From assembly GCA_965248845.1 (NCBI GenBank), contig CBDFKO010000002.1:968063-1032062 (forward strand): a stretch of DNA of 64,000 nt, written 5' to 3'. Each line of letters opens with the position of its first letter. Position 1 is the stretch's first letter. Under the pieces are notes generated by a model. That model made no database searches. It was not told the origin of the DNA and was given only the letters and a program-made list of their open reading frames with translations. A program made the position numbers and the translations under genes. Origin of the DNA: Acidobacteriota bacterium (lineage in GTDB: Bacteria > Acidobacteriota > UBA890 > WLXD01). Below, piece after piece: positions 2,302 through 58,080 of the stretch.

Positions 2302-2934
2302 CTATTCGGCGGGATCCGCCGCAGCCGCCAGGATGGTGTCGGAATCGCCGATCGCCATGCGCGCGAATCGACGCACGACGATGTTCTCGCCGATCCGGGC
2401 CATCGCCTCGGCAAGCATGTCGCCCACCTTTTGATCAGGATCCTTGACGAAGCTCTGCTCCAACAAGCAAACCTCGGAGTAATACCGCTTCACCTTGCCG
2501 TCGACGATCTTCTCGACGATATGCTCCGGCTTGCCCGCGGCGATCGCCTGCTCCCGGTAAAGCTGCCGCTCGGATTCGAGCGACGAGCCGTCGATGTCGT
2601 CGCGGGAGACGTAGCGTGGACTGGCAGCCGCCACTTGCATCGCCAGGTCCCGCGCCAGCGCAACGAAGTCCTCGTTGCGTGCCACGAAGTCGGTCTCGCA
2701 GTCGAGCTCGAGAACGACGGCGATCTTGCCGCCCATGTGCACATAGCTTTCGATCCGCCCCTCACGGGCCGCCCGGCCGGCGCGCTTGGCTGCCTTGGCC
2801 TTGCCCCTGGTGCGTAGGATCTTGATCGCCTCGTCGATGTCTCCACTGGCCTCCTTGAGGGCGCCCTTGCAATCCATGATGCCGACGCCGGTACGCTCGC
2901 GGAGCTCCTTCACTGCTGCTGCGGTGATTTCCAT
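2302..2934 (-). CDS. tsf: Elongation factor Ts
   Basis: The MEITAAAVKELRERTG...MDCKGAL N-terminus is canonical EF-Ts. Start taken at the internal ATG (2934) rather than the ORF-track start at 2946. Confidence 0.9.
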   Translation of the reverse strand: MEITAAAVKELRERTGVGIMDCKGALKEASGDIDEAIKILRTRGKAKAAKRAGRAAREGRIESYVHMGGKIAVVLELDCETDFVARNEDFVALARDLAMQVAAASPRYVSRDDIDGSSLESERQLYREQAIAAGKPEHIVEKIVDGKVKRYYSEVCLLEQSFVKDPDQKVGDMLAEAMARIGENIVVRRFARMAIGDSDTILAAAADPAE

Positions 2935-3021
2935 CCTTTTCGTCACTTGCTGGGTTTCGGATCTAGGAGGCCTTGCGGCGCGACCGTGAAAATTCTAAAT
3001 CGCGGACCCCGGAGCCAGGGA

Positions 3022-3831
3022 TCAAGCGTCGGCCTGCGCCCCGGTCTCAGGCTCGGTCTCGTTGGCCGACCCCTCGGTTGACTCGCTGTCGGCCTCGGCC
3101 TTCTTGGCCTCCTCGGCTTCACGCGCCGCGGCCTCGAGGCGATCGTCGTAGGTGGCACGACCCGCGATCACCGCGTCGGCGGCGATCCGGCAGAACAGAC
3201 GGATCGACCGGATTGCGTCGTCGTTACCCGGCACGACGTGCGCAATCCCGTCGGGATCGCAGTTGGTATCGACGACCGCTACGACAGGAATGCCCAGCTT
3301 TAGCGCCTCGTCGGCGGCGATGCGCTCGCGCCGGATATCCATTACGAACACGACGTCGGGAAGCCCTCCCATCTCCTTGATGCCTACGAGGTTGCGCTTG
3401 AGCTTGAAGAGCTCCCGCTCGAGCTTCAGCACTTCCTTCTTCGTAAGCAGATCGAAGCGCCCGTCGGCCGCCATGGCCTCGAGATCAACATACCGGTCGA
3501 TGGAGCGACGGATTGTCTGATAGTTGGTCAGCAGACCGCCCAGCCAGCGATGGTTGACGTAGTACTGGCCGCAGCGTGTGGCCTCTTCGGCGATGATGTC
3601 CTGCGCCTGACGCTTGGTGCCTACGAAGAGCACCCTGCCGCCCTGCGCGGACTCCTCCTCCAGGAACTCGAGGGCGCCTCGCCAGGCGTTCTGCGTTTTC
3701 TGCAGGTCGATGATGTAGATGCCGTTGCGCTTGCCGAAGATGAAGGGCTTCATCTTCGGGTTCCAGCGCCCGGTCTGGTGGCCGAAATGAACGCCGGCCT
3801 CAAACAGGTCTCGCAGCGTCACGCTGAGCAA
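3022..3831 (-). CDS. rpsB: 30S ribosomal protein S2
   Basis: The [15 protein letters not shown]-like N-terminus is diagnostic of S2; acidic C-terminal tail. Confidence 0.95.
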
Positions 3832-3843
3832 GTCGTCCTCCTA

Positions 3844-4236
3844 CTACCGCTTGCTGAACTGGAAGCGGGCTCGCGCGCCGCGCTGGCCATACTTCTTGCG
3901 CTCTTTCTCGCGCGCGTCGCGAGTCAGAAAGCCGTGCTCCTTGAGCTTCGGCCGAAGATCCGGGTCTGTCGCCAGCAGGGCCCGTGCCACGCCGTGGCGC
4001 ACTGCACCGGACTGGCCGCTGAGACCGCCCCCCTTGACCGTGACGAACAGATCGAACTTGTTGAGCTGGTCAACGACCTCGAGCGGTCGCATCGCGTCTG
4101 CCCGCTGCAACGCGCTCGGGAAGTAATCGTCGAACTCGCGACTATTGACCGTCACCTGCCCGGTACCCGGACGCAAGAAGACGCGGGCCACCGCGTTCTT
4201 CCGCTTGCCCGTTCCATAGAACTGCGTGTCTGCCAT
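3844..4236 (-). CDS. rpsI: 30S ribosomal protein S9
   Basis: 130 aa, GTGKRKNAVARV...GGGLSGQSGA...KKYGQRGARARFQFSKR. Confidence 0.95.
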   Translation of the reverse strand: MADTQFYGTGKRKNAVARVFLRPGTGQVTVNSREFDDYFPSALQRADAMRPLEVVDQLNKFDLFVTVKGGGLSGQSGAVRHGVARALLATDPDLRPKLKEHGFLTRDAREKERKKYGQRGARARFQFSKR

Positions 4237-4250
4237 CGATCTACTCCGGT

Positions 4251-4679
4251 CTACTCGGCGAACGGCTCGGGCTGCTGCGCCGCGTGCGGGTGGTCCGGCC
4301 CGGCGTAGACTTTCAACTTGCGGTACATCTGGCGGCCCACACGGGTCTTGGGCAGCATGCCCTTGACCGCGAGCTCCACGATGCGCTCGGGGTGCGTCTC
4401 CATCATGCGTTGGGCTCGGATCTCGGTGAGCCCACCCGGGTAGCCGCTGTACCGGTAGTACTTCTTGTCTTCCATTTTGGCGCCCGTGAGCACCACCTTG
4501 TCGGCGTTCACCACCACCACGTGATCACCCGTGTCGAGGAACGGGGTGTAGGTCGGCTTGTGCTTGCCCATGAGTAGGCGCGCCACTGTCGTGGCCAGCC
4601 GACCAAGGACCGCACCCTCGGCGTCGAGCGTCAGCCAGCGGCGCTCGATCTCCTTGGCGGAAGGGAACGGGGTACTCAT
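4251..4679 (-). CDS. rplM: 50S ribosomal protein L13
   Basis: 142 aa, [16 protein letters not shown]...YRYSGYPGG motifs; rplM-rpsI pair. Confidence 0.95.
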
Positions 4680-4746
4680 CGGTTCATCACTCTCGGTTCA
4701 TCCCCCAGCAGCGGGCCGGGGTTCGATCACGGGTCGGCCGGCCGCC

Positions 4747-6843
4747 TCAGGCTCCGGCGGCCACCTTCTCCTCTTCGGTGAGTGCCTTCAACGAGAGTCG
4801 AATTCGGTTGGGCGCCTCGATCTTCACTACCTTGACCACGATCTCGTCGCCCTCGGCAACGTGCTCGCGCATGTCCTGGACGTGCTGCTCCGAAACCTCG
4901 GAGATGTGCAGTAGGCCGTCGGTGCCCGGCAGGATCTCGACGAAGGCGCCGAAGTCCTTGATCGAGCGGACCTTGCCGCGATAGACGCGGCCGACCTCGG
5001 CCTCCTGGGTGAGATCCTCGATCATCCTCCGGGCGGCATCACAGGCATCGGTGTCGGGCGAGGCGATCTGCACGGTGCCGTCGTCCTCGACGTTGATCTT
5101 GCAGCCGGTCTCCTCCTGCATCTGCCGGATGATGCGGCCGCCGGGCCCGATGATGTCGCGGATGCGATCGACCGGGATCTTCAGGCTGATGATTTGCGGC
5201 GCCCAGCGGCTGGTCTCCGGTCGCGGCGCCGACAGAGCCTCGCTCATCTTGCGCAGGATGTGCAGCCGGTTCTCGCGCGCCTGGTTCAGCGCCGTCTCGA
5301 AGATCTCCCGGGACAGACCACTGACCTTGATGTCCATCTGCAGCGCCGTGATCCCTTGCGGCGTCCCGGCGACCTTGAAGTCCATGTCACCGTAGTGATC
5401 CTCCTCGCCGGCGATGTCCGACAGGATCGCTACCGTGTCGCCCTCCTTCATCAACCCCATGGCCACACCGGCGACCGGACCCCGGATCGGTACCCCGGCG
5501 TCCATCAGCGACAGCGTACCGCCACAGATCGTTGCCATCGACGAGGAGCCGTTCGACTCGAAGATTTCCGATACCGTGCGGATCACGTACTGCCACTCGT
5601 CCTCGGGCGGGATCACGGGCGAGAGCGCCCGCTCCGCCAGGTTCCCGTGGCCGATCTCGCGCCGGCCGGGCCCTCGCATGAAGCGCGCCTCGCCGACGCT
5701 GAAGGGCGGGAAATTGTAGTGGAGCAGGAAACGCTTCCAGTACTCCCCGTTGTACTCCTCGACCTTCTTGGCATCGTCGCTCGTGCCCAAGGTCGTGGTC
5801 ACAAAGGCCTGCGTCTCTCCGCGGGTGAACAACGCCGAGCCGTGCGCTCGGGGTGAATAGCCGACCTCGCAGGTGATCGGACGCACCTCGTCAAAGGCAC
5901 GACCGTCGAAGCGAACGCCGTCCTCGAGGGCCGACTTGCGGGTGTAGCGCTTGATCAGCTCACCGAGCGCCTCGCTCACGACTGGCCCGAGCTCCTCATC
6001 CTCGGCGACCTGCTCCTTGATGGCGGCCTTCATCTCGCCCATGCGATCGCGGCGCTCGATCTTGTCGCGGACCTGCAGCGCCTCGCTGATGGGCCCGCCG
6101 GCGAGCTCCTCGATGCGTGATACCAGAGCCGGGTCGAGCACATCGGGCACGAACTCGAACTTCTCGATGCTCGCCTGCTCGCGCAGCTTCTCCTGGACGT
6201 CGATCACGGTGTCGATAAACGGCTGTACGAACTCAAGCGCTCCGATGATCTCGTCCTCGGAGACCTCCTCGGCCCCCGCCTCCACCATCATCACGGCGTC
6301 GCGGCGGGCAGCCAGCACGAGATCGAGTCGGCTTTCCTCCATCTGGCTGCTGGTCGGGTTGAGTACGTAGTCGCCGTCGATCATGCCGATGCGAAAGGCA
6401 CCGAACGGAGTGTCGAACGGGATCCGGGACAGGTTGAGCGCGAAGGAGGCGCCCACTTTGGCCAGAACACCCGGATCGTTTTCGCCATCCGCCGACAGGA
6501 CCATGCCGATGACCTGGGTCTCGTGGCGGTATCCCTTCGGAAACAAGGGCCGGATCGTCCGGTCGATCATCCTGCAGGTCAGGATCTCCTTCTCGGAGGG
6601 CCGTCCCTCACGCTTGAAGAAGCCCCCGGGGATCTTGCCCCCCGCGTAGGTCCACTCACGGTAGTCGACAGTGAGCGGCAGGAAGGAGGCCTCACGCGGC
6701 TTGCGCGCCATCACCGCTGTCACCAGAACCTTCGTGTCGCCGCACGAGACCACAACTGCCCCGTCGGCCTGGCGGGCGATTCTGCCCATCTCGACCTCGA
6801 TGGTAATGCCGCCGAGCTCGATCGTTTCACGCACTATGCTCAT
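4747..6843 (-). CDS. pnp: Polynucleotide phosphorylase (polyribonucleotide nucleotidyltransferase)
   Basis: Two RNase PH domains, KH and S1 domains. Start taken at the internal ATG 6843 (MSIVRETIELGG); the ORF-track start at 6948 adds 35 non-conserved residues. Confidence 0.95.
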   Translation of the reverse strand: MSIVRETIELGGITIEVEMGRIARQADGAVVVSCGDTKVLVTAVMARKPREASFLPLTVDYREWTYAGGKIPGGFFKREGRPSEKEILTCRMIDRTIRPLFPKGYRHETQVIGMVLSADGENDPGVLAKVGASFALNLSRIPFDTPFGAFRIGMIDGDYVLNPTSSQMEESRLDLVLAARRDAVMMVEAGAEEVSEDEIIGALEFVQPFIDTVIDVQEKLREQASIEKFEFVPDVLDPALVSRIEELAGGPISEALQVRDKIERRDRMGEMKAAIKEQVAEDEELGPVVSEALGELIKRYTRKSALEDGVRFDGRAFDEVRPITCEVGYSPRAHGSALFTRGETQAFVTTTLGTSDDAKKVEEYNGEYWKRFLLHYNFPPFSVGEARFMRGPGRREIGHGNLAERALSPVIPPEDEWQYVIRTVSEIFESNGSSSMATICGGTLSLMDAGVPIRGPVAGVAMGLMKEGDTVAILSDIAGEEDHYGDMDFKVAGTPQGITALQMDIKVSGLSREIFETALNQARENRLHILRKMSEALSAPRPETSRWAPQIISLKIPVDRIRDIIGPGGRIIRQMQEETGCKINVEDDGTVQIASPDTDACDAARRMIEDLTQEAEVGRVYRGKVRSIKDFGAFVEILPGTDGLLHISEVSEQHVQDMREHVAEGDEIVVKVVKIEAPNRIRLSLKALTEEEKVAAGA

Positions 6844-7038
6844 TCCGCTCGTCCTTTGAGCCGCACTGGGGCTCTCGTCAGGGTCGCGCTGAAGCGCAGC
6901 TGGGTTGCCCTGGTCCGAGGTATGAATCGCTAGAGTGCGTTCCGCCAAGACCGCGTCAACCGACTAACCGCTAGTTCCCTTCGCCGCGTCCGCTTTTTCC
7001 GCTTCGGCCGGCACCAACCGGCTCTATCGATTCGTAAC

Positions 7039-7293
7039 CTACCGCCGCAGCCCGAGCTCTTGGATCAGGCCTTGATAGCGCGCCACGTCCTCGCGGCACA
7101 GGTAGTCCAGCAAGCGCCGACGCTTGCCGACCAGCATCAGGAGTCCGCGCTGCGTGGCGAAGTCCTTCTTGTGAGCTTTCATATGTTCGGTGAGGTGCTT
7201 GATCCGCGAGGTCAGCTGGGCAACCTGCACCTCTGGCGAGCCCGTGTCCGAAGGGTGTCGCCGAAAATCGTCGAATGCAGTTTCCATCATCAA
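7039..7293 (-). CDS. rpsO: 30S ribosomal protein S15
   Basis: [29 protein letters not shown]...RRRLLDYL is canonical S15; lies upstream of pnp. Confidence 0.9.
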
Positions 7294-7412
7294 TCTTCTT
7301 CTGATTTCCGTTCCGCTTGCAGATACCCGAGCGTGGACACACGAATGCCTCGGTTGAATCGGGTTAGGCTAGCATAGGCCAATGGGGCTGTAAAACGCAC
7401 TCGATTCCGTTA

Positions 7413-8390
7413 CTAGTGTGACGCGGCGGAGTTCTCTTGTCTTATGGCTTTGGCGAGGATCTGGTCGGCGGACTTGAGCCAAAGGAAGGGCTCGGAGCCG
7501 TCGTTCCAGGCTCGGATGAAGCGGTGGATGGCCTTGATCAGGACATCGACGCTGCTGAAGCTGCCGCGCCGGACGGCCTGCGAGGTGAGGATGCCGAACC
7601 AGGTCTCCACCTGATTCATCCAGGAAGCGGAAGTGGGCGTGAAGTGACGCGTGAACCGCGGGTGTTGCTCGAACCAGGCCTCGACCTTGGGCTGGGTGTG
7701 GGTGCCGTAGTTGTCCAGCACCAGGTGGATCTCGCCCTCGGGGTAGGTGCGGTCGATCAAGCGTAGGAAGCGAAGAAACTCCTGGTGGCGGTGCCGCTGC
7801 ATGCAGGTGCCCAGGATCTCGGCGGTGGCTAGGTTCAACGCCGCGAACAGCGTCGTGGTGCCGTGGCGTCTGTAATCGTGGGTGCAGCGCTCTGGATCGC
7901 CGCGGCGCATGGGCAACATCGGCTGAGTCCGGTCCAGAGCCTGGATCTGGCTCTTCTCGTCCACGCACAGCACCAGCGCCCCCTGGGGCGGGTGCAGGTA
8001 CAGCCCCACGATGTCGGTGACCTTGTCCTGCAGGAGTGGATCGGCGGAGTACTTGAAGGTCTCGGTGCGATGGGGCTGCAGGCCGTTGCGCCGCCAGATC
8101 CGCAGGATCGTCGAAGGGCTCGCATCGACCTGTTTGGCGAGCCGCTGTGCGCTCCAATGGGTTCGGCTCGGAGGCCTCTCCAGGGTTGCGGCGATGATCT
8201 TGGCTTCCCGCACGGCGTCGTAGGTGCGCACACGACCAGAGCGCGGCTCGTCACCGAGATCCTCGATGCCCTGCTTGGCTGCGCGAGCGCGCCACATGCC
8301 CACGGTCTGTCGGGAGGTCTCGAGGCGCTCGGCGATCTGCTGGTTCTGCAGCCCCTGCTCGGCAAGCAGGATGATGTGGGCTCGGAACAC
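7413..8390 (-). CDS. IS630-family DDE transposase (catalytic part; GTG start)
   Basis: 325 aa with a DDE_3-like core ([12 protein letters not shown]...[10 protein letters not shown]...WMNQVE). About 55% identical to the second IS630 transposase at 56910..58001. Confidence 0.85.
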   Translation of the reverse strand: MFRAHIILLAEQGLQNQQIAERLETSRQTVGMWRARAAKQGIEDLGDEPRSGRVRTYDAVREAKIIAATLERPPSRTHWSAQRLAKQVDASPSTILRIWRRNGLQPHRTETFKYSADPLLQDKVTDIVGLYLHPPQGALVLCVDEKSQIQALDRTQPMLPMRRGDPERCTHDYRRHGTTTLFAALNLATAEILGTCMQRHRHQEFLRFLRLIDRTYPEGEIHLVLDNYGTHTQPKVEAWFEQHPRFTRHFTPTSASWMNQVETWFGILTSQAVRRGSFSSVDVLIKAIHRFIRAWNDGSEPFLWLKSADQILAKAIRQENSAASH

Positions 8391-8573
8391 CTGCCGCTGC
8401 TGTGAGCTCGGCGCGTCGATTACTCCCTGGAGCCGCTGCCCGCTGCTGCCCGGTCAACGAAATCTCCGGTGCTACCCTGGGCATCGTGGCCTCCTGTCCC
8501 GACAAGTTTACTGTCGAGACAAGGAAGTCTTAATATGCCATATAAGTCAAGCTAATTACGACGCGTTACACTA
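7414..8573. mobile_element. IS630-family insertion sequence (copy 1, ~1.16 kb) inserted into a CTAG between truB and rpsO, with TA duplication
   Basis: Flanks are tacTAgtgtgacgcgg on the left and cgcgttacacTAgcgcc on the right. Terminal inverted repeat gtgtgacgcg / gtgtaacgcg. Reconstructed empty site is aCTAGc. Confidence 0.8.
8391..8505 (-). other. N-terminal HTH segment of the IS630 copy-1 transposase, encoded in a different frame from the catalytic part (frameshift)
   Basis: MPRVAPEISLTGQQRAAAPGSNRRAELTAAAGV aligns to the N-terminus of copy 2 ([17 protein letters not shown]...[13 protein letters not shown]). The catalytic ORF lies in the -1 frame relative to it. Confidence 0.45.
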
Positions 8574-8670
8574 GCGCCGCGTCGTCGTCGAGCCCATTCG
8601 ACCCTTTGGCGAGCCGGCGGGCGCATACGTGATCGGCCTCGAATCCCGTCGCGACGAGGCCGCGACGGCG

Positions 8671-9600
8671 TCACTGCAGCACCACCCTCGGCTGCAACAT
8701 GCCCCCCGGGCGAATCTCCGCGGCCGCGATCATGGAGCCTTGCTGGTCCAGGATCCGTACCCAGCCCCCGGCCCCGGTGCCGGTGATGATGTCGCCGTCC
8801 GCACCGGCTCTGCGCTCGACGATGTGGCGGGGCTCGATGACGCCGCCGTTCCGGAGCCGGTGCAGCCCCTCCTCGCCGACCCGGGCCACAGGCCAGGTCG
8901 GAAGCATCTCGGCGCATGGAATCACAGCCGCCAGCAGATCGTCGCGCGAGACCTGCTCCAGAGAGTCCAGCAGCATGGCGCGGTCGAGGCCGAAGCCCCC
9001 GACTCCGAGACGACGCAGTGACTCCAAGTGCGAGGGATAGCCCAAGGCCTCGCCCAGGTCGCGGGCCAGCGTACGTACGTAGGTGCCCGAGCCGCAGTGC
9101 ACCCGCAGATCGATGCGCTCCCCTTCAACGGCGAGCATCTCCAGCGCGTGGATTTCCACACGAATCAGATCGTGCACCACGCTTTCGCCGCGTCGCGCCC
9201 GCTTGTACGCAGGCTGACCACGGATCTTCTTGGCCGAGTACACCGGCGGGATCTGCTCGATCGGCCCGCGAAAGCGCTCCAGTGCCTGCTCGATGGCCGT
9301 CGCGTCGAGCGGCTCGACCGTGACCGGCCCCTCCACGATCTCCCCCTCGGCGTCGTAAGTATCTGTCGCCCAGCCGAGGCGTACGCTGCAGTCGTACACC
9401 TTGTCTTGGTGCTGCAGGAAGCGACTCAGGCGTGTCGCACCACCGACACAGACGAGCAGCACCCCGGTAGCCTGTGGGTCGAGCGTGCCGGTGTGCCCAG
9501 CCCGCGCATCCAGCTGCTTGCGAACGCGCACGACAACGTCGTGGGAGGTCAGCCCTGCCGGCTTGTCGAGAACCAGCATCCCAGCGACGGCAAGGCTCAT
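8671..9600 (-). CDS. truB: tRNA pseudouridine(55) synthase
   Basis: GMLVLDKPAGLTSHDVV...HTGTLDPQATGVL with the catalytic Asp motif. Start at ATG 9600; the ORF-track extension to 9687 is not conserved. Confidence 0.9.
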   Translation of the reverse strand: MSLAVAGMLVLDKPAGLTSHDVVVRVRKQLDARAGHTGTLDPQATGVLLVCVGGATRLSRFLQHQDKVYDCSVRLGWATDTYDAEGEIVEGPVTVEPLDATAIEQALERFRGPIEQIPPVYSAKKIRGQPAYKRARRGESVVHDLIRVEIHALEMLAVEGERIDLRVHCGSGTYVRTLARDLGEALGYPSHLESLRRLGVGGFGLDRAMLLDSLEQVSRDDLLAAVIPCAEMLPTWPVARVGEEGLHRLRNGGVIEPRHIVERRAGADGDIITGTGAGGWVRILDQQGSMIAAAEIRPGGMLQPRVVLQ

Positions 9601-11502: not shown

Positions 11503-13641
11503 AGAGAGGCTCGGGCGGATCTCCTTGAGGACGAAGAACTCAATCATGTCGCCGACCTTGACATCGTTGAAGTTCTCGAGCGCGATACCGCACTCGTAAC
11601 CCTGGCCCACCTCGGCGACGTCGTCCTTGAAGCGTCGCAGCGATCTGACCTGCCCCTCGTAGACGATCCTCGAGTCCCGCACCAGACGCACCTTGGCGGC
11701 GCGTGTCACCTTGCCCCCGGTCACGTAGCAGCCGGCGATGGAGCCGATCCGGGGAATGCGGAAAGTCTCGCGCACCTCGGCCTGTCCGAGCTCCTCGTCC
11801 TCGAAGGTGGGGTCGAGCTTACCCACCATCGCCTGCTTGACATCGTCGATGAGCTGGTAAATGACCGTGTAGAGCCGAAGATCGACGCCGGCGCTGGCTG
11901 CGATATCCGCCACGCCACGCTCCGGGCGCACGTTGAATCCCACGATGATCGCCTCGGACGCCGAGGCCAGCAACACATCGTGCTCCGAGACGCCACCGAC
12001 CGCCGCGCGGATGATCTGCACCTCGACTTTGTCGCCTGACAGCTTGCCCAGCGCGTCACGCAGCGTCTCGGTTGAGCCCTGGGTGTCGGCCCTGAGCACG
12101 ACCGAAAGCTTCACCCGACCACCGGCTTCGATGCGCGCGTGCAGATCGGCGAGCGTCAGGCGCGTGCCACCGGCCAATGATTCGCGCCGCTGTTTGTCCC
12201 GCCGCAGTTCGGCCACCTTGCGCGCCAACGACGCTTGCTCGACGACCTGGAAGGAGTCGCCGGCTCCCGGCACGCCGGAGAAGCCGAGCACCTCGACCGC
12301 CGTCGCCGGTCCGGCCTCCTTCACGGGGTTCCCGTAGGAGTCGAACATGGCACGGACCTTGGCGCTCTCGGCGCCCGCGACCAGGCTGTCGGCTACGGCG
12401 AGCGTTCCTGCCTGGACCAGCACCGTCGCGACCGGGCCGCGTCGCCGGTCGAGCTCGGCCTCGAGCACGACGCCATGCGCCGCGATCTTGGGGTTCGCAC
12501 GCAACTCCAAGAGCTCCGACGACAGAATGATCATCTCGAGCAGCCCATCGAGGTTCTCTTTGGTCTTGGCCGAGACCGCAACGCAGACGGTATCGCCGCC
12601 CCAATCCTCCGGCGTCAAGTCACGGTCGACCAGCTGCTGCTTGGCTCGGTCGACGTTGGCCTCGGGACGATCGATCTTGTTGACCGCCACGATGATCGGC
12701 ACGTTGGCCGCGCGGGCGTGGTCGATGGCTTCCACGGTCTGCGGCATGACTCCGTCGTCGGCGGCGAGCACCAGGACCACCAGATCGGTGACCTGTGCGC
12801 CGCGGGCTCGCATTCGCGTGAAGGCCTCGTGGCCCGGGGTATCGATGAAGACGATTCGGTTGCCGTTCCATTCCACCTCGGACGCGCCGATGTGCTGCGT
12901 GATCCCGCCCGCCTCGCGCGCCACAACGTTTGTCTGCCGGATCGAATCGAGCAGATGGGTCTTGCCATGGTCGACGTGCCCCATGATGGTCACGACGGGC
13001 GCTCGGGGTTCGAGATCGTCGCTGCTACCGGTCTCGATTTCGCCGAGCAGGACCTCGTCCCGCCCCAACAACTGCAGGGCCACTCCGTGCTCGGCAGCGA
13101 TCTCCACGGCCACATCGGCATCCAGCGCCTGGTTCACGTTGGCCATGGCACCGCGGCCCATCAATTCGCGGATGATCTCCGCGGGGCTGATTCCCATGGC
13201 CTCGGCCAGTTGCCCGACCGTAGCACCCTCCTCGACCGCTACCGCGCGAGCCGGTGCCGCGGCTGCGGCAGGCTCCGGCTCGACCTCCTGCTCCGGCTCG
13301 GGCTCGGGCTCTGCGTCGGCTGCTGCCCCGGGCTCGGCCTCGGCCTCGGCCTCGAGTTCTCCTTCGGGCTCGGGCTCGGGCTCAACTTCGGGCTCGGGCT
13401 CGGGCCCTACTTCGGGCTCGGCCTCTGCCTCAGGCTCGATCTCAATCTCAGCTTCAGGCCCGGCTACCAGGGGCTCGGGGCCTTGCCCCGATTCTCCGGC
13501 AAGCGCCTGCCGCACGCGAGCCGCTTCCTCCTCGGACACCGAGTTGGCATGGCTCTTGACCGCTACGCCCAGCTCGTTGAGGGCCTGGAGGACCACCTTG
13601 CTCTCGACGTCCAGTTCCCGGGCGATCTCGTAAACCCGCAT
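11491..13641 (-). CDS. infB: Translation initiation factor IF-2
   Basis: 716 aa with the GTPase domain ([17 protein letters not shown]) and IF2 C-terminal domains. Short N-terminal region rich in EP/EA repeats. Confidence 0.95.
13254..13445. repeat. Tandem GC-rich coding repeats (ctcggg/ctcggc units) encoding the [12 protein letters not shown] tract at the IF-2 N-terminus
   Basis: Visible tandem hexamer/dodecamer periodicity inside infB. Confidence 0.6.
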
Positions 13642-13720
13642 TCCTGTGAATCCTTCCGCTTCCTGTTGCCGCTAACTACGCGTTCCGCTCGATGTTTCAG
13701 GCTTCGATGCCGAAGCGCTC

Positions 13721-15313
13721 TCAGAATCGTCCATCGTCCGAGTCCTCACCCAGCGCCGGCTCCTGGTCAGCCGCAGCGTCGGGCTCCGCAACCTCGGCGG
13801 CCCCCGATTCATCGGCCTCGGTGACCTCGGGCTCCGCAACCTCGGTGGCTTGCGGCTCGGCGGGCTCCGGCTCGGCGACCTCGGTAACCTCCGGCTCGGC
13901 GGCCTCGGCGGGCTCCAGCTCGGCAACCTCCGTGGTCTCCGGCTCGGCAGCCTCGGTAACCTCCGGCTCAGCAGCCTCGGTGTCCTCCGGTTCCACGGGC
14001 GCGATGGCGACCTCGGGGGCCTCCTGCGTCCCCTCGATCAGGTCACGCGCTTGCTGATAGATCTTCAACGCCGACTTGGGTCCGATACCGGCCACCGCGA
14101 GGAGCGCATCCTCACCGGCCAGCACGATCGAGCGTGCCGTCTCGAAGCCGGCCTCGCGCAAGGCGGCGGCTGCGGTCGCGCCCACCGCCTCTAGCTGCTC
14201 GACACCCGGTGCCGCCGAGGTCGGCGCGGCTACCGGCTTTTTCTCCGTATCTGCGGCCGGCTGTCCGGCGCCGCCGACATCGATCTTGCAGCCGAGCAGC
14301 TTGCCGGCCAAGCGCACGTTCTGCCCGCGCTTGCCGATGGCAAGGGAAAGTTGGTCCTCGTTCACGATGACCTGAAGATGCTGTGCGGCCTCTCCGGTCA
14401 CTTCGTCGACTACGTCGACCTCCTTCACATGATTGACCCTTGCCGGCTTGAGCGCGTTGATCGCGAACTGGAAGCGATCCGGCGACCACTCAACGATGTC
14501 GATCTTCTCGCCGCGCAGCTCACGGATGATGGCCTGGACCCGAGAGCCCCGCATGCCGACGCACGCGCCGACGGGGTCGACGTCCGGCTCGTTGGACTGC
14601 ACCGCCACCTTGGCGCGGTCACCGCCTTCGCGCACGGCGCCCTTGATCACGACCGTCTGGTCGTAGATCTCGGGGACCTCCATCTCGAACAGCCGCTTGA
14701 GCAACTCGGGGCTGTTGCGCGACACTACGACCATCGGTCCGCGCGTGGCCTGCAGCACCTCGATGATGACCAGCCGAATGCGGTCGCCGATGTTGTAGTG
14801 TTCCGCCCGCGATTGCTCGCGCCGCGGCAAGATGGCCTCGGTTCGGCCCAGATCGACCATCATGTCACCGCGCTCGAAGCGCTTGACGATCCCGGTCAGG
14901 AGCTCGCCGACCCGGTCGACATACTCCACATATATATTGTCGCGCTCAGCATCGCGGACTTTCTGGAAAATGACCTGCCGGGCCGCATGGGCCGCGATGC
15001 GCCCGAGCTGATCGGTGGACATCGAGCGCCGTAGCTCGTCACCCACTTTCGGGTCGTCCATTCCCTCGGCTCGCGCCTCCTCGACGGTCAGCTCCGCAAG
15101 CGGGTCTTCGACCACTTCGACGACACGTTTCACCGCGGCCAGCTCGACCTCGCCGGTCTCAGGGTTCAGCGAAGCCTCGAGGTAGTCCTCGGTCCCATAG
15201 AACTTCTGGGCCGCTACCGCCATGGCCTCTTCGACCGCCTCGATGATGACCTGCGGCTCGATGTTTTTCTCACGACCGATCTGCTCGATCGTCTGGAGTA
15301 GCATCTGGGCCAT
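13721..15313 (-). CDS. nusA: Transcription termination/antitermination factor NusA with an acidic repeat C-terminal extension
   Basis: NusA N-terminal, S1 and two KH domains, then (EPEVTEAA)-like octapeptide repeats at the C-terminus. Confidence 0.95.
   Translation of the reverse strand: MAQMLLQTIEQIGREKNIEPQVIIEAVEEAMAVAAQKFYGTEDYLEASLNPETGEVELAAVKRVVEVVEDPLAELTVEEARAEGMDDPKVGDELRRSMSTDQLGRIAAHAARQVIFQKVRDAERDNIYVEYVDRVGELLTGIVKRFERGDMMVDLGRTEAILPRREQSRAEHYNIGDRIRLVIIEVLQATRGPMVVVSRNSPELLKRLFEMEVPEIYDQTVVIKGAVREGGDRAKVAVQSNEPDVDPVGACVGMRGSRVQAIIRELRGEKIDIVEWSPDRFQFAINALKPARVNHVKEVDVVDEVTGEAAQHLQVIVNEDQLSLAIGKRGQNVRLAGKLLGCKIDVGGAGQPAADTEKKPVAAPTSAAPGVEQLEAVGATAAAALREAGFETARSIVLAGEDALLAVAGIGPKSALKIYQQARDLIEGTQEAPEVAIAPVEPEDTEAAEPEVTEAAEPETTEVAELEPAEAAEPEVTEVAEPEPAEPQATEVAEPEVTEADESGAAEVAEPDAAADQEPALGEDSDDGRF
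13790..13995. repeat. Tandem ~24-bp coding repeats at the nusA 3' end (acidic octapeptide repeats)
   Basis: Repeating cctcggtaacctccggctcggc(a/g)g units. Confidence 0.6.
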
Positions 15314-56879: not shown

Positions 56880-58080
56880 GTCTCCTGTAACAGTGGTTCG
56901 CAGCATAAGTCATGAGGCGTGTTGGTCGAGAGTGCGCTGTGCGAACCGGGCGATGGGAGCCAGGATCTCGTCGGCACTCTTGCACCACACGAACGGCTCG
57001 GGGGTCTCGTTGTGCGCATCGATGAACTCCCAGATAGCTGCCACCAGCGCTGCGACACTGCAATGAGATCCGCGGCGGATCTGCTTGTTGGTCAGCTCGG
57101 CGAACCAGCGCTCGACCTGGTTGAGCCACGAGGCATAGGTAGGGGTGAAGTGCAGGTGGAAGCGTGGCCGTTTGGCCAGCCAGGTGTGGATCATCGGGCT
57201 CTTGTGGGTGCCGTAGTTGTCCAGGACCAGATGCACCTGCAGTTGGGCAGGCACCTGCTCATCGATCATGTCCAGGAACTTGCGGAACTCCACCGAGCGA
57301 TGCCGGCGGTGAGTCTGAGCCAGAACGGTTCCCGTCTTGATGTCCAAGGCGGCGAACAACGATGTCGTTCCATGGCGTTGGTAGTCATGCGTGCGCCGCT
57401 CCATCTGGCCGGGCCGCATGGGTAGCAACGGCTGTGTCCGATCCAGTGCCTGGATCTGGCTCTTTTCGTCCACGCACAGCACCACCGCGTGCTCGGGCGG
57501 GTTGACATACAACCCGACGACGTCGCGCACCTTGTCCACCAGTAACGGGTCGGGCGAGAGCTTGAACGTCTCGGTGCGGTGTGGCTTGAGACCAAAGGCA
57601 CGCCAGATCCGGCTGATTGTGGCGTGGCTCAAGCCGGTCGCCTTGGCCATCGACCGGGTGGACCAGTGGGTGGCCCCACGCGGGGTACTCTCCAAGGTGC
57701 GGATGATCACCTGTTCGACCTGGGCGTCCGTGATCTTGCGCGGCGCTCCGGGTCGCGGTTCGTCGTACAGGCCATCGAGACGATCCGACACGAAGCGTGC
57801 CCGCCATTTGCCCACGGTGCTCGGTGACAGCTGCAAGCGCTTGGCCACGGCCTTGTTGTCGTGTCCCTGCGCGCAGGCCAGGACGATGCGCGCGCGGCGT
57901 GCCGGGGCGGGGGCGGTGCGGGATCGATGCGCCAACGAGTTCAGGTGTGCCTCCTCCTGTGGCGTCAGCGTTAAGGGAGCCTTGGGTCGACCGGTGCGCA
58001 TGCGACAATCTCCTGTGCTCAGCTACAGGTTCAACATATGCACACTATAACTTATATCAGTTATTTCTGATACAGGAGAC
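56880..58080. mobile_element. IS630-family insertion sequence (copy 2, 1201 bp) inserted at the TA of a CTAG between two MITE arms
   Basis: TA duplications at 56878-56879 and 58081-58082. Terminal inverted repeat gtctcctgtaacag / gtctcctgtatcag with AT-rich subterminal sequence. Confidence 0.85.
56910..58001 (-). CDS. IS630-family DDE transposase (full length, N-terminal HTH plus DDE core)
   Basis: 363 aa; aligns with the copy-1 transposase over its whole length. Confidence 0.9.

Follow-up and report, generated by a model that had tools for sequence, protein, structure and literature searches.

The spacer between truB and rpsO in the Acidobacteriota DNA analysed here, a window of 64,000 nucleotides, is occupied by an insertion sequence, copy 1, whose transposase gene lies in two reading frames one nucleotide apart, one opened by the ATG at 8484 and the other containing an ORF at 7413-8390. 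This arrangement, recognized in the first-pass annotation and borne out here, raises the question of whether the transposase is expressed by programmed frameshifting or has been inactivated by mutation, and whether rpsO has come to depend on a promoter brought in by the element. The position of the element was likewise correctly described, with truB at 8671-9600 on its upstream side, rpsO at 7039-7293 on its downstream side and pnp following rpsO. The two questions are treated in turn, starting from the boundaries of the element and the exact nature of the lesion.

Boundaries, target site and family of the element

Copy 1 is 1156 bp long and extends on the minus strand from 7416 to 8571, as delimited by the inverted repeats, the TA duplication and the alignment to the related elements L081, L163, L164 and L165. 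The terminal inverted repeats are imperfect and span ~30 bp, the left one (8542-8571, GTGTAACGCGTCG...) having been recognized by its match to the other end, and the right one (7416-7445, reverse complement GTGTGACGCGGCG...) overlapping the last transposase codons. Between the two ends, GTGTAACGCGTCG... and ...CGCCGCGTCACAC, 11 of 13 positions are matched, and ~22 of 30 across the first 30 nucleotides, while the exact terminal 13-mer is found nowhere else in the window. Duplicated TA dinucleotides flank the element at 8572-8573, inside a regenerated CTAG, and at 7414-7415, and in silico reconstruction of the empty site gives ...GCGCTAGTAAC..., with CTAG as the target. The same C-TA-G flanks surround L081, L163, L164 and L165. 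IS630-family elements are usually ~1.0-1.4 kb long, and copy 1, with its inverted repeats, its length and its TA duplication within CTAG, conforms to the family in these respects.

The transposase gene does not possess a stop codon of its own. The TAG at 7415-7413 is composed of the duplicated TA and G7413 of the CTAG target, and the right ends of the relatives L081, L162, L163 and L165 read ...CACAC followed by TAG as in copy 1. As the stop codon is supplied by the target, insertion at a TA outside a CTAG context would lengthen the protein into the flanking DNA. A precedent is IS870 of Agrobacterium vitis, the transposase stop codon of which is derived from the target site (PMC13630536, citing Fournier et al. 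1993). Copy 1 resembles the IS630 family and IS870, within the IS630/Tc1/mariner superfamily, in its inverted repeats and in the TA target within CTAG, and resembles IS870 in obtaining its TAG from the target, while, unlike IS870 and the intact IS630 members, its gene is disabled by a one-base insertion in codon 16/17.

When the two frames are joined, the rebuilt protein has the composition of an IS630-family enzyme, a single transposase of ~350 residues with N-terminal helix-turn-helix (HTH) domains and a DDE_3 domain, in which 35 residues lead from the second D to the E. Pfam assigns DDE_3 to residues 171-315 (82 bits against a cutoff of 28.6), HTH_23/28/29 to residues 33-87 and HTH_32 to residues 60-130. 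The 325-aa ORF of the downstream frame matches on its own the NCBIfam IS630 model NF033545 over positions 2-298 of 299 (278.5 bits against a cutoff of 100, E 7e-83), and it holds all the Pfam HTH domain matches. The catalytic triad consists of D175 (VDEKS), D257 (LDNYG) and E293 (NQVETW), which are invariant in the ten closest relatives. With a profile match above the curated cutoff and a DDE triad on the one hand, and an ORF split by a one-base insertion at 8437 in place of an uninterrupted functional transposase on the other, copy 1 is a defective member of the IS630 family. Among GTDB species-representative genomes the best matches listed reach only ~58% identity to copy 1. The element is probably an unnamed member of this family. 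Scans of genome contigs and metagenomes returned, among the matches listed, no copy closer than ~60% identity; the scan of viral contigs gave no match to either junction allele, and megablast of the element against plasmids only distant IS630 matches.

A single inserted base separates the two frames

The native reading frame starts with the ATG at 8484, 5 nucleotides downstream of a putative Shine-Dalgarno sequence (AGGAGG, 8490-8495, minus strand). From there the native N-terminal coding part (8438-8484), encoding MPRVAPEISLTGQQR and reaching two bases into codon 16, is read in the ATG frame, while the rest of the transposase, native codons 17-356 and the stop with the HTH domains and D175/D257/E293, is read at 8436-7413 in the +1 frame. 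The two parts are separated by one extra A at 8437, in the context GGGC[A]GCGG on the minus strand, as located by alignment to L164, L081, L162, L163 and L165. At this point the intact allele reads CAG CAG CGG GCG CGG CTC, encoding QQRARL. L164, a near-identical copy on an ENA metagenome contig, is 99.6% identical to copy 1 over the first 800 nucleotides and differs by three substitutions (8530, 8230 and 7792) and the A8437 indel. The extra A is also missing in L165, L081, L162 and L163, four relatives of lower identity whose coding regions are otherwise free of indels relative to copy 1, and its removal in silico yields an ORF of 356 aa.

These alignments shift the position and the sign of the lesion in comparison with the first-pass annotation, where the split had been placed at 8391/8390 and labelled a candidate -1 frameshift or inactivation, with the HTH assigned to the N-terminal piece (8484-8391). 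The lesion resides in codon 16/17, 47 nucleotides upstream of 8391/8390, and the supposed junction is merely where the downstream frame has its first GTG, from which the 325-aa ORF (7413-8390, P0121 in the public annotation) has been called. With 8484-8390 equalling 94, or 3x31+1, the downstream frame is offset by +1 from that of the ATG. Since the DNA is one base too long, a -1 slip cannot rescue the gene; a +1 or -2 event, or an mRNA one base short, would be needed. The upstream piece contains 16 native codons, and the Pfam HTH domains belong to the downstream frame.

Two other descriptions of the lesion, a 7-nucleotide tandem duplication of GCAGCGG and an extra G, were considered and rejected, as the alignment to L164 shows a single extra A that completes the second GCAGCGG. 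The inserted A converts the sequence GCAGCGG-GCGCGG into the perfect tandem GCAGCGG-GCAGCGG (8437-8450). This tandem is compatible with an origin of the mutation by templated misalignment between quasi-repeats, which is offered as speculation.

The ATG at 8484 opens a frame which ends at the TGA at 8253-8251, and since the bulk of the gene is read in another frame, ribosomes initiating at this start codon should produce a nonsense peptide, predicted at 77 aa with 16 native and 61 out-of-frame residues (8251-8484). The frame for the HTH and DDE domains, deprived of the conserved N-terminal ~31 residues and of a proper initiation signal, would not be expected to give a functional transposase. 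Among close relatives M1, V4, A5, R15, L18, Q29 and R30 are invariant, and as these residues all fall within the N-terminal ~31, their loss should matter. The ten closest protein clusters (one at 99% and nine at 72-86% identity) all have lengths of 354-356 aa and align without gaps to the rebuilt protein. The 356-aa protein with 99% identity sits on a contig of 4,360,038 bp, and the 325-aa ORF of the window belongs to the same 99% cluster.

The first-pass annotation had pointed to a second copy in the window, encoding the same regions in one frame, as the reference for locating the indel. This element (56880-58080, minus strand) comprises 1201 bp, with the inverted repeat GTCTCCTGTA... and a TA in CTAG, and its gene at 56910-58001 indeed encodes an intact 363-aa transposase in one frame with its own stop codon. 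Nevertheless, it has different inverted repeats from copy 1 and shares only 53% amino acid identity with it, and 72% over a DNA stretch of 300 nucleotides. By its sequence it is thus a different IS630-family element rather than a copy of the same insertion sequence, and is too distant to serve for locating the indel by alignment.

The reading frame of the relatives and the case for recoding

Whether the split is a conserved feature was assessed in 165 fetched relatives, of which 155 show one tblastn HSP extending from residue 20 or before to residue 340 or beyond. In six further relatives the match starts at residue ~29, as it would if they were naturally shorter or shared the frameshift. Both readings were rejected, since the N-terminus of these relatives has diverged but stays in frame with an ATG ~30 codons upstream. 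A single frame across the lesion point is consequently kept in 161 of the 165. As to the other four, L164 and L029 are intact across the lesion point, L164 being interrupted at a later point by a nested element and L029 ending with its contig, while in L130 the match is short at the C-terminal end and in L033 the frame changes elsewhere. The single-frame arrangement of the 161 relatives identifies the split as an inactivating indel, as the first-pass annotation had favoured, and the absence of the extra base from L164, from the four close relatives and from the 161 marks it as a derived and not a conserved state.

Sporadic frame changes are observed elsewhere in the group, near residue 90 in L033 (3001-4039) and near residue 310, in the C-terminal part, in L022 (3001-4025); these two sequences illustrate that random frameshift decay may well be common in this IS group. 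The L164 copy (2912-6813) is broken after ~800 nucleotides by a nested IS21-like element encoding IstB-like and Mu-type transposase proteins, and the remainder of its IS630 gene resumes ~2.9 kb further along the contig.

A precedent for recoding exists within the family. The transposase of an IS630 element of Roseiflexus is produced from transcripts which are one C short at a T5C5 motif following a nascent-RNA hairpin (Atkins et al. 2016 review, PMC5009743), and as this correction has the same direction as the one needed here, recoding signals were looked for in copy 1. Between the ATG at 8484 and the stop of its frame, the sequence contains no XXXYYYZ heptamer, whichever the phase, in agreement with the first-pass annotation, which had seen no obvious slippery heptamer at the junction; nor was a conserved slippery site with a downstream structure found. 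The only homopolymer run of at least 4 in this interval is the GGGG at 8355, 82 nucleotides downstream of the lesion and thus not near it, and a shift at this run would garble ~27 residues. In the vicinity of the lesion there is neither a stop codon nor any other obvious site of pausing, the first stop in the ATG frame being 186 nucleotides downstream. RNA folds of three segments around the lesion gave minimum free energy z-scores of +0.58 to +0.93 against dinucleotide shuffles, that is, slightly less stable than the shuffled sequences. At the lesion, accordingly, neither a shift-prone motif nor a stimulatory RNA structure nor a conserved two-frame arrangement is present.

The likeness to known recoded elements is therefore limited to the layout. 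As in the Roseiflexus element the transposase is split between frames and would need an mRNA one base short, but whereas there the T5C5 motif comes right after a GC-rich nascent-RNA hairpin, copy 1 lacks both a homopolymer motif and a significant hairpin, and its split is not conserved. As in the orfA-orfB arrangement of IS3 and IS1 a short upstream ORF overlaps a longer catalytic ORF, but these elements use programmed -1 frameshifting, while the offset in copy 1 is +1 and its upstream piece consists of 16 native codons without a DNA-binding domain. Copy 1 also differs from IS3 and IS1 in having no A AAA AAG-type heptamer or downstream structure, and in the presence of intact single-frame paralogues in the genome. 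Low-level production of full-length transposase by a +1 ribosomal frameshift or by transcriptional slippage that drops one base would have in its favour the use of frameshift events in the IS630 family, with the Roseiflexus correction in the required direction (PMC5009743), and the coexistence of several 325-aa variants in the genome. Set against a lesion without a T/C or A run or a slippery motif at or near 8437, without a stable local RNA structure, and with an extra base that is missing from a 99.6%-identical copy, four close relatives and 161 of 165 more distant ones, this explanation is extremely improbable, the least probable of those considered here.

Other copies in the genome and alternative explanations

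The same 4.36-Mb contig encodes at least seven distinct intact 356-aa variants of the transposase, which read QQRARLQGV at the lesion point. It also encodes three distinct 325-aa variants, all starting from the same GTG, which are P0121 (copy 1), P0122 and P0126. Further derivatives are P0134, an in-frame internal deletion in which the 5'UTR ATGGCATATTATGACTT is fused to ...TSRQTVGMW, and the two 68-aa transposase fragments P0124 and P0132. The IS population of the genome is, judging from these proteins, a mix of intact and decaying copies. The call of a 325-aa ORF implies a lesion between ~codon 10 and codon 32, and as three independent lesions within this interval are unlikely, a shared lesion that was spread by trans-mobilisation or gene conversion would be more economical. 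The substitution A85V, common to P0121 and P0126, is found in none of the listed intact variants. These observations hint that the broken allele may have spread to several loci. The 77-aa and 84-aa out-of-frame peptides were absent from the protein collection that was searched for copies sharing the lesion.

That the coding defect belongs to the assembly rather than to the genome, so that the copy would be intact and the extra A would have arisen during consensus building or polishing of a multicopy repeat, is the least improbable of the alternatives, although its chance is small. The lesion is a single-base indel in an element with more than ten near-identical copies, where mis-mapped reads can corrupt polishing, and copy 1 is otherwise only a few substitutions away from intact versions. 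Indel sequencing errors are, however, usually expected in homopolymer runs, and the extra A stands outside any such run (GGGC[A]GCGG). Moreover, the genome contains two more distinct 325-aa ORF variants, and the presence of A85V in one of them, P0126, as in copy 1, fits an inherited lesion.

If the lesion is real, the downstream frame might still be used. N-terminally truncated transposases can be regulators, as in the case of the Tn5 Inh protein, a truncated product which acts as an inhibitor in trans. Translation of the 325-aa ORF from the internal GTG at 8390 would give a truncated transposase, either a weak enzyme or such a trans-acting inhibitor, and the ORF does retain every Pfam HTH match together with the DDE triad and covers the NCBIfam IS630 profile in full, with three distinct variants of exactly this ORF in the genome. 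Yet no Shine-Dalgarno sequence is present at a workable distance, since GGCAGG directly abuts the GTG; the codon is GTT in L163 and is therefore no conserved start; ribosomes from the ATG at 8484 traverse the GTG in the other frame and continue to 8251; and the N-terminal ~31 residues which the product would lack are kept in frame across the family. An Inh-like product from the GTG at 8390 is unlikely, and the wider proposal of a truncated product, weak enzyme or inhibitor, ranks in probability above recoding alone. Judged very doubtful as well, with a probability between those of the truncated product and of the assembly error, is the notion that the frameshifted allele forms a sub-lineage at three or more loci, which would be kept because the GTG-started truncated protein damps the intact copies in the manner of Tn5 Inh, or which would merely behave as a non-autonomous element and be propagated in trans. 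The three 325-aa variants are more than would be expected from unrelated random lesions, which counts against a plain inactivation account, and the allele could be maintained or spreading for some other reason.

With high probability, copy 1 is an ordinary case of a defective copy within a multicopy IS630-family element, which the extra base at 8437 has inactivated and whose insertion into the truB-rpsO spacer was harmless. According to this preferred reading, an IS630-family element that is multicopy in a 4.36-Mb Acidobacteriota-like genome would recently have inserted in operon orientation into a CTAG site in a non-conserved part of the spacer, with duplication of the TA, and would recently have been inactivated by A8437, through which the start codon and the leading 16 codons would no longer share a frame with what follows. 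As both inverted repeats and the TA flanks have been kept, copy 1 could move in trans with the transposase of its intact paralogues.

The truB-rpsO spacer and the putative rpsO promoter

The 309-aa TruB (8671-9600, minus strand) is recognized by TIGR00431 with 231 bits and matches P0135 at 100%, S15 (rpsO, 7039-7293, minus strand) by TIGR00952 with 114 bits, and the pnp product (4747-6948, minus strand) by TIGR03591 with 972 bits. Upstream of truB are located genes for an NrnA-like protein, rbfA and infB, all on the minus strand like the transposase. The closest relatives of TruB are metagenomic, and the named ones are Acidobacteriota.

With the element removed, the window spacer was aligned with the uninterrupted spacers of the acidobacterial sequences L166, L169, L170 and L172. 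Without the insertion the truB-rpsO spacer measures ~220 bp in the window, as compared to 200 bp in L166, and the alignment shows no conservation around the insertion site. Conservation is found further downstream, where a promoter-like block shared with the four relatives (7366-7394 of the window, minus strand) starts 20 bp downstream of the target TA and consists of a -35 TTTACA (7394-7389), a 17-nucleotide spacer ending in TGc, as in an extended -10, and a -10 TAGCCT (7371-7366). From its conservation and position we infer that this block is the native rpsO promoter. In L169 it begins just 4 nucleotides after the truB stop codon, so that nothing upstream of the block appears to be required. 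A generic scan of 6900-8800 for sigma-70 promoters and terminators returned nothing and did not list the block, the -10 of which agrees with TATAAT at three of six positions and thus lies under the four of six demanded by the scan.

The first-pass annotation had suggested that the rpsO promoter may now be derived from the element or that rpsO may be read through from it. As the promoter-like block survives 20 bp downstream of the element, an IS-derived promoter is unnecessary, and this part of the suggestion finds no support. Transcript read-through from the co-oriented element into rpsO is possible; rpsO would nevertheless most likely still be transcribed from its own promoter, to which read-through would add without replacing it.

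Several further features surround the insertion. Within 7294-7394 (minus strand) the promoter-like block is followed, in the ~70-nucleotide rpsO 5'UTR, by the motif CGTGTG(T/C)CC, conserved in the four relatives, and this conserved stretch could be an autoregulatory leader for S15. Rfam gave no match in 6800-8800, and RNAalifold found no convincing consensus structure for the rpsO 5'UTR in five sequences. On the other side of the element, 3 nucleotides after the truB stop codon, there is a hairpin with a perfectly paired stem of 8 bp, CCGTCGCG-gcctcgt-CGCGACGG (8646-8668, minus strand), which is not followed by a T-run and could be a terminator-like or RNA-stabilising element closing the infB-truB unit. 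At 13240-14017 long degenerate arrays with a period of 12/24 nucleotides, rich in GGCTC/GGCCTC, occupy the 5' end of infB and the sequence just upstream; read on the minus strand, they specify repeats rich in Glu, Pro and Ala within the N-terminal region of IF-2.

Significance

With respect to annotation, copy 1 is to be entered as a pseudogene of an IS630-family transposase, frameshifted at 8437, and neither as a programmed-frameshift gene nor as a 325-aa transposase. The essential operon tolerates the insertion, the element having landed in a non-conserved part of the spacer 20 bp upstream of the conserved promoter-like block. Beyond annotation the case matters little, and nothing unusual is needed to explain copy 1. 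A mildly interesting question that it raises for the biology of this IS population is whether the broken allele may have spread in the genome by trans-mobilisation or gene conversion.
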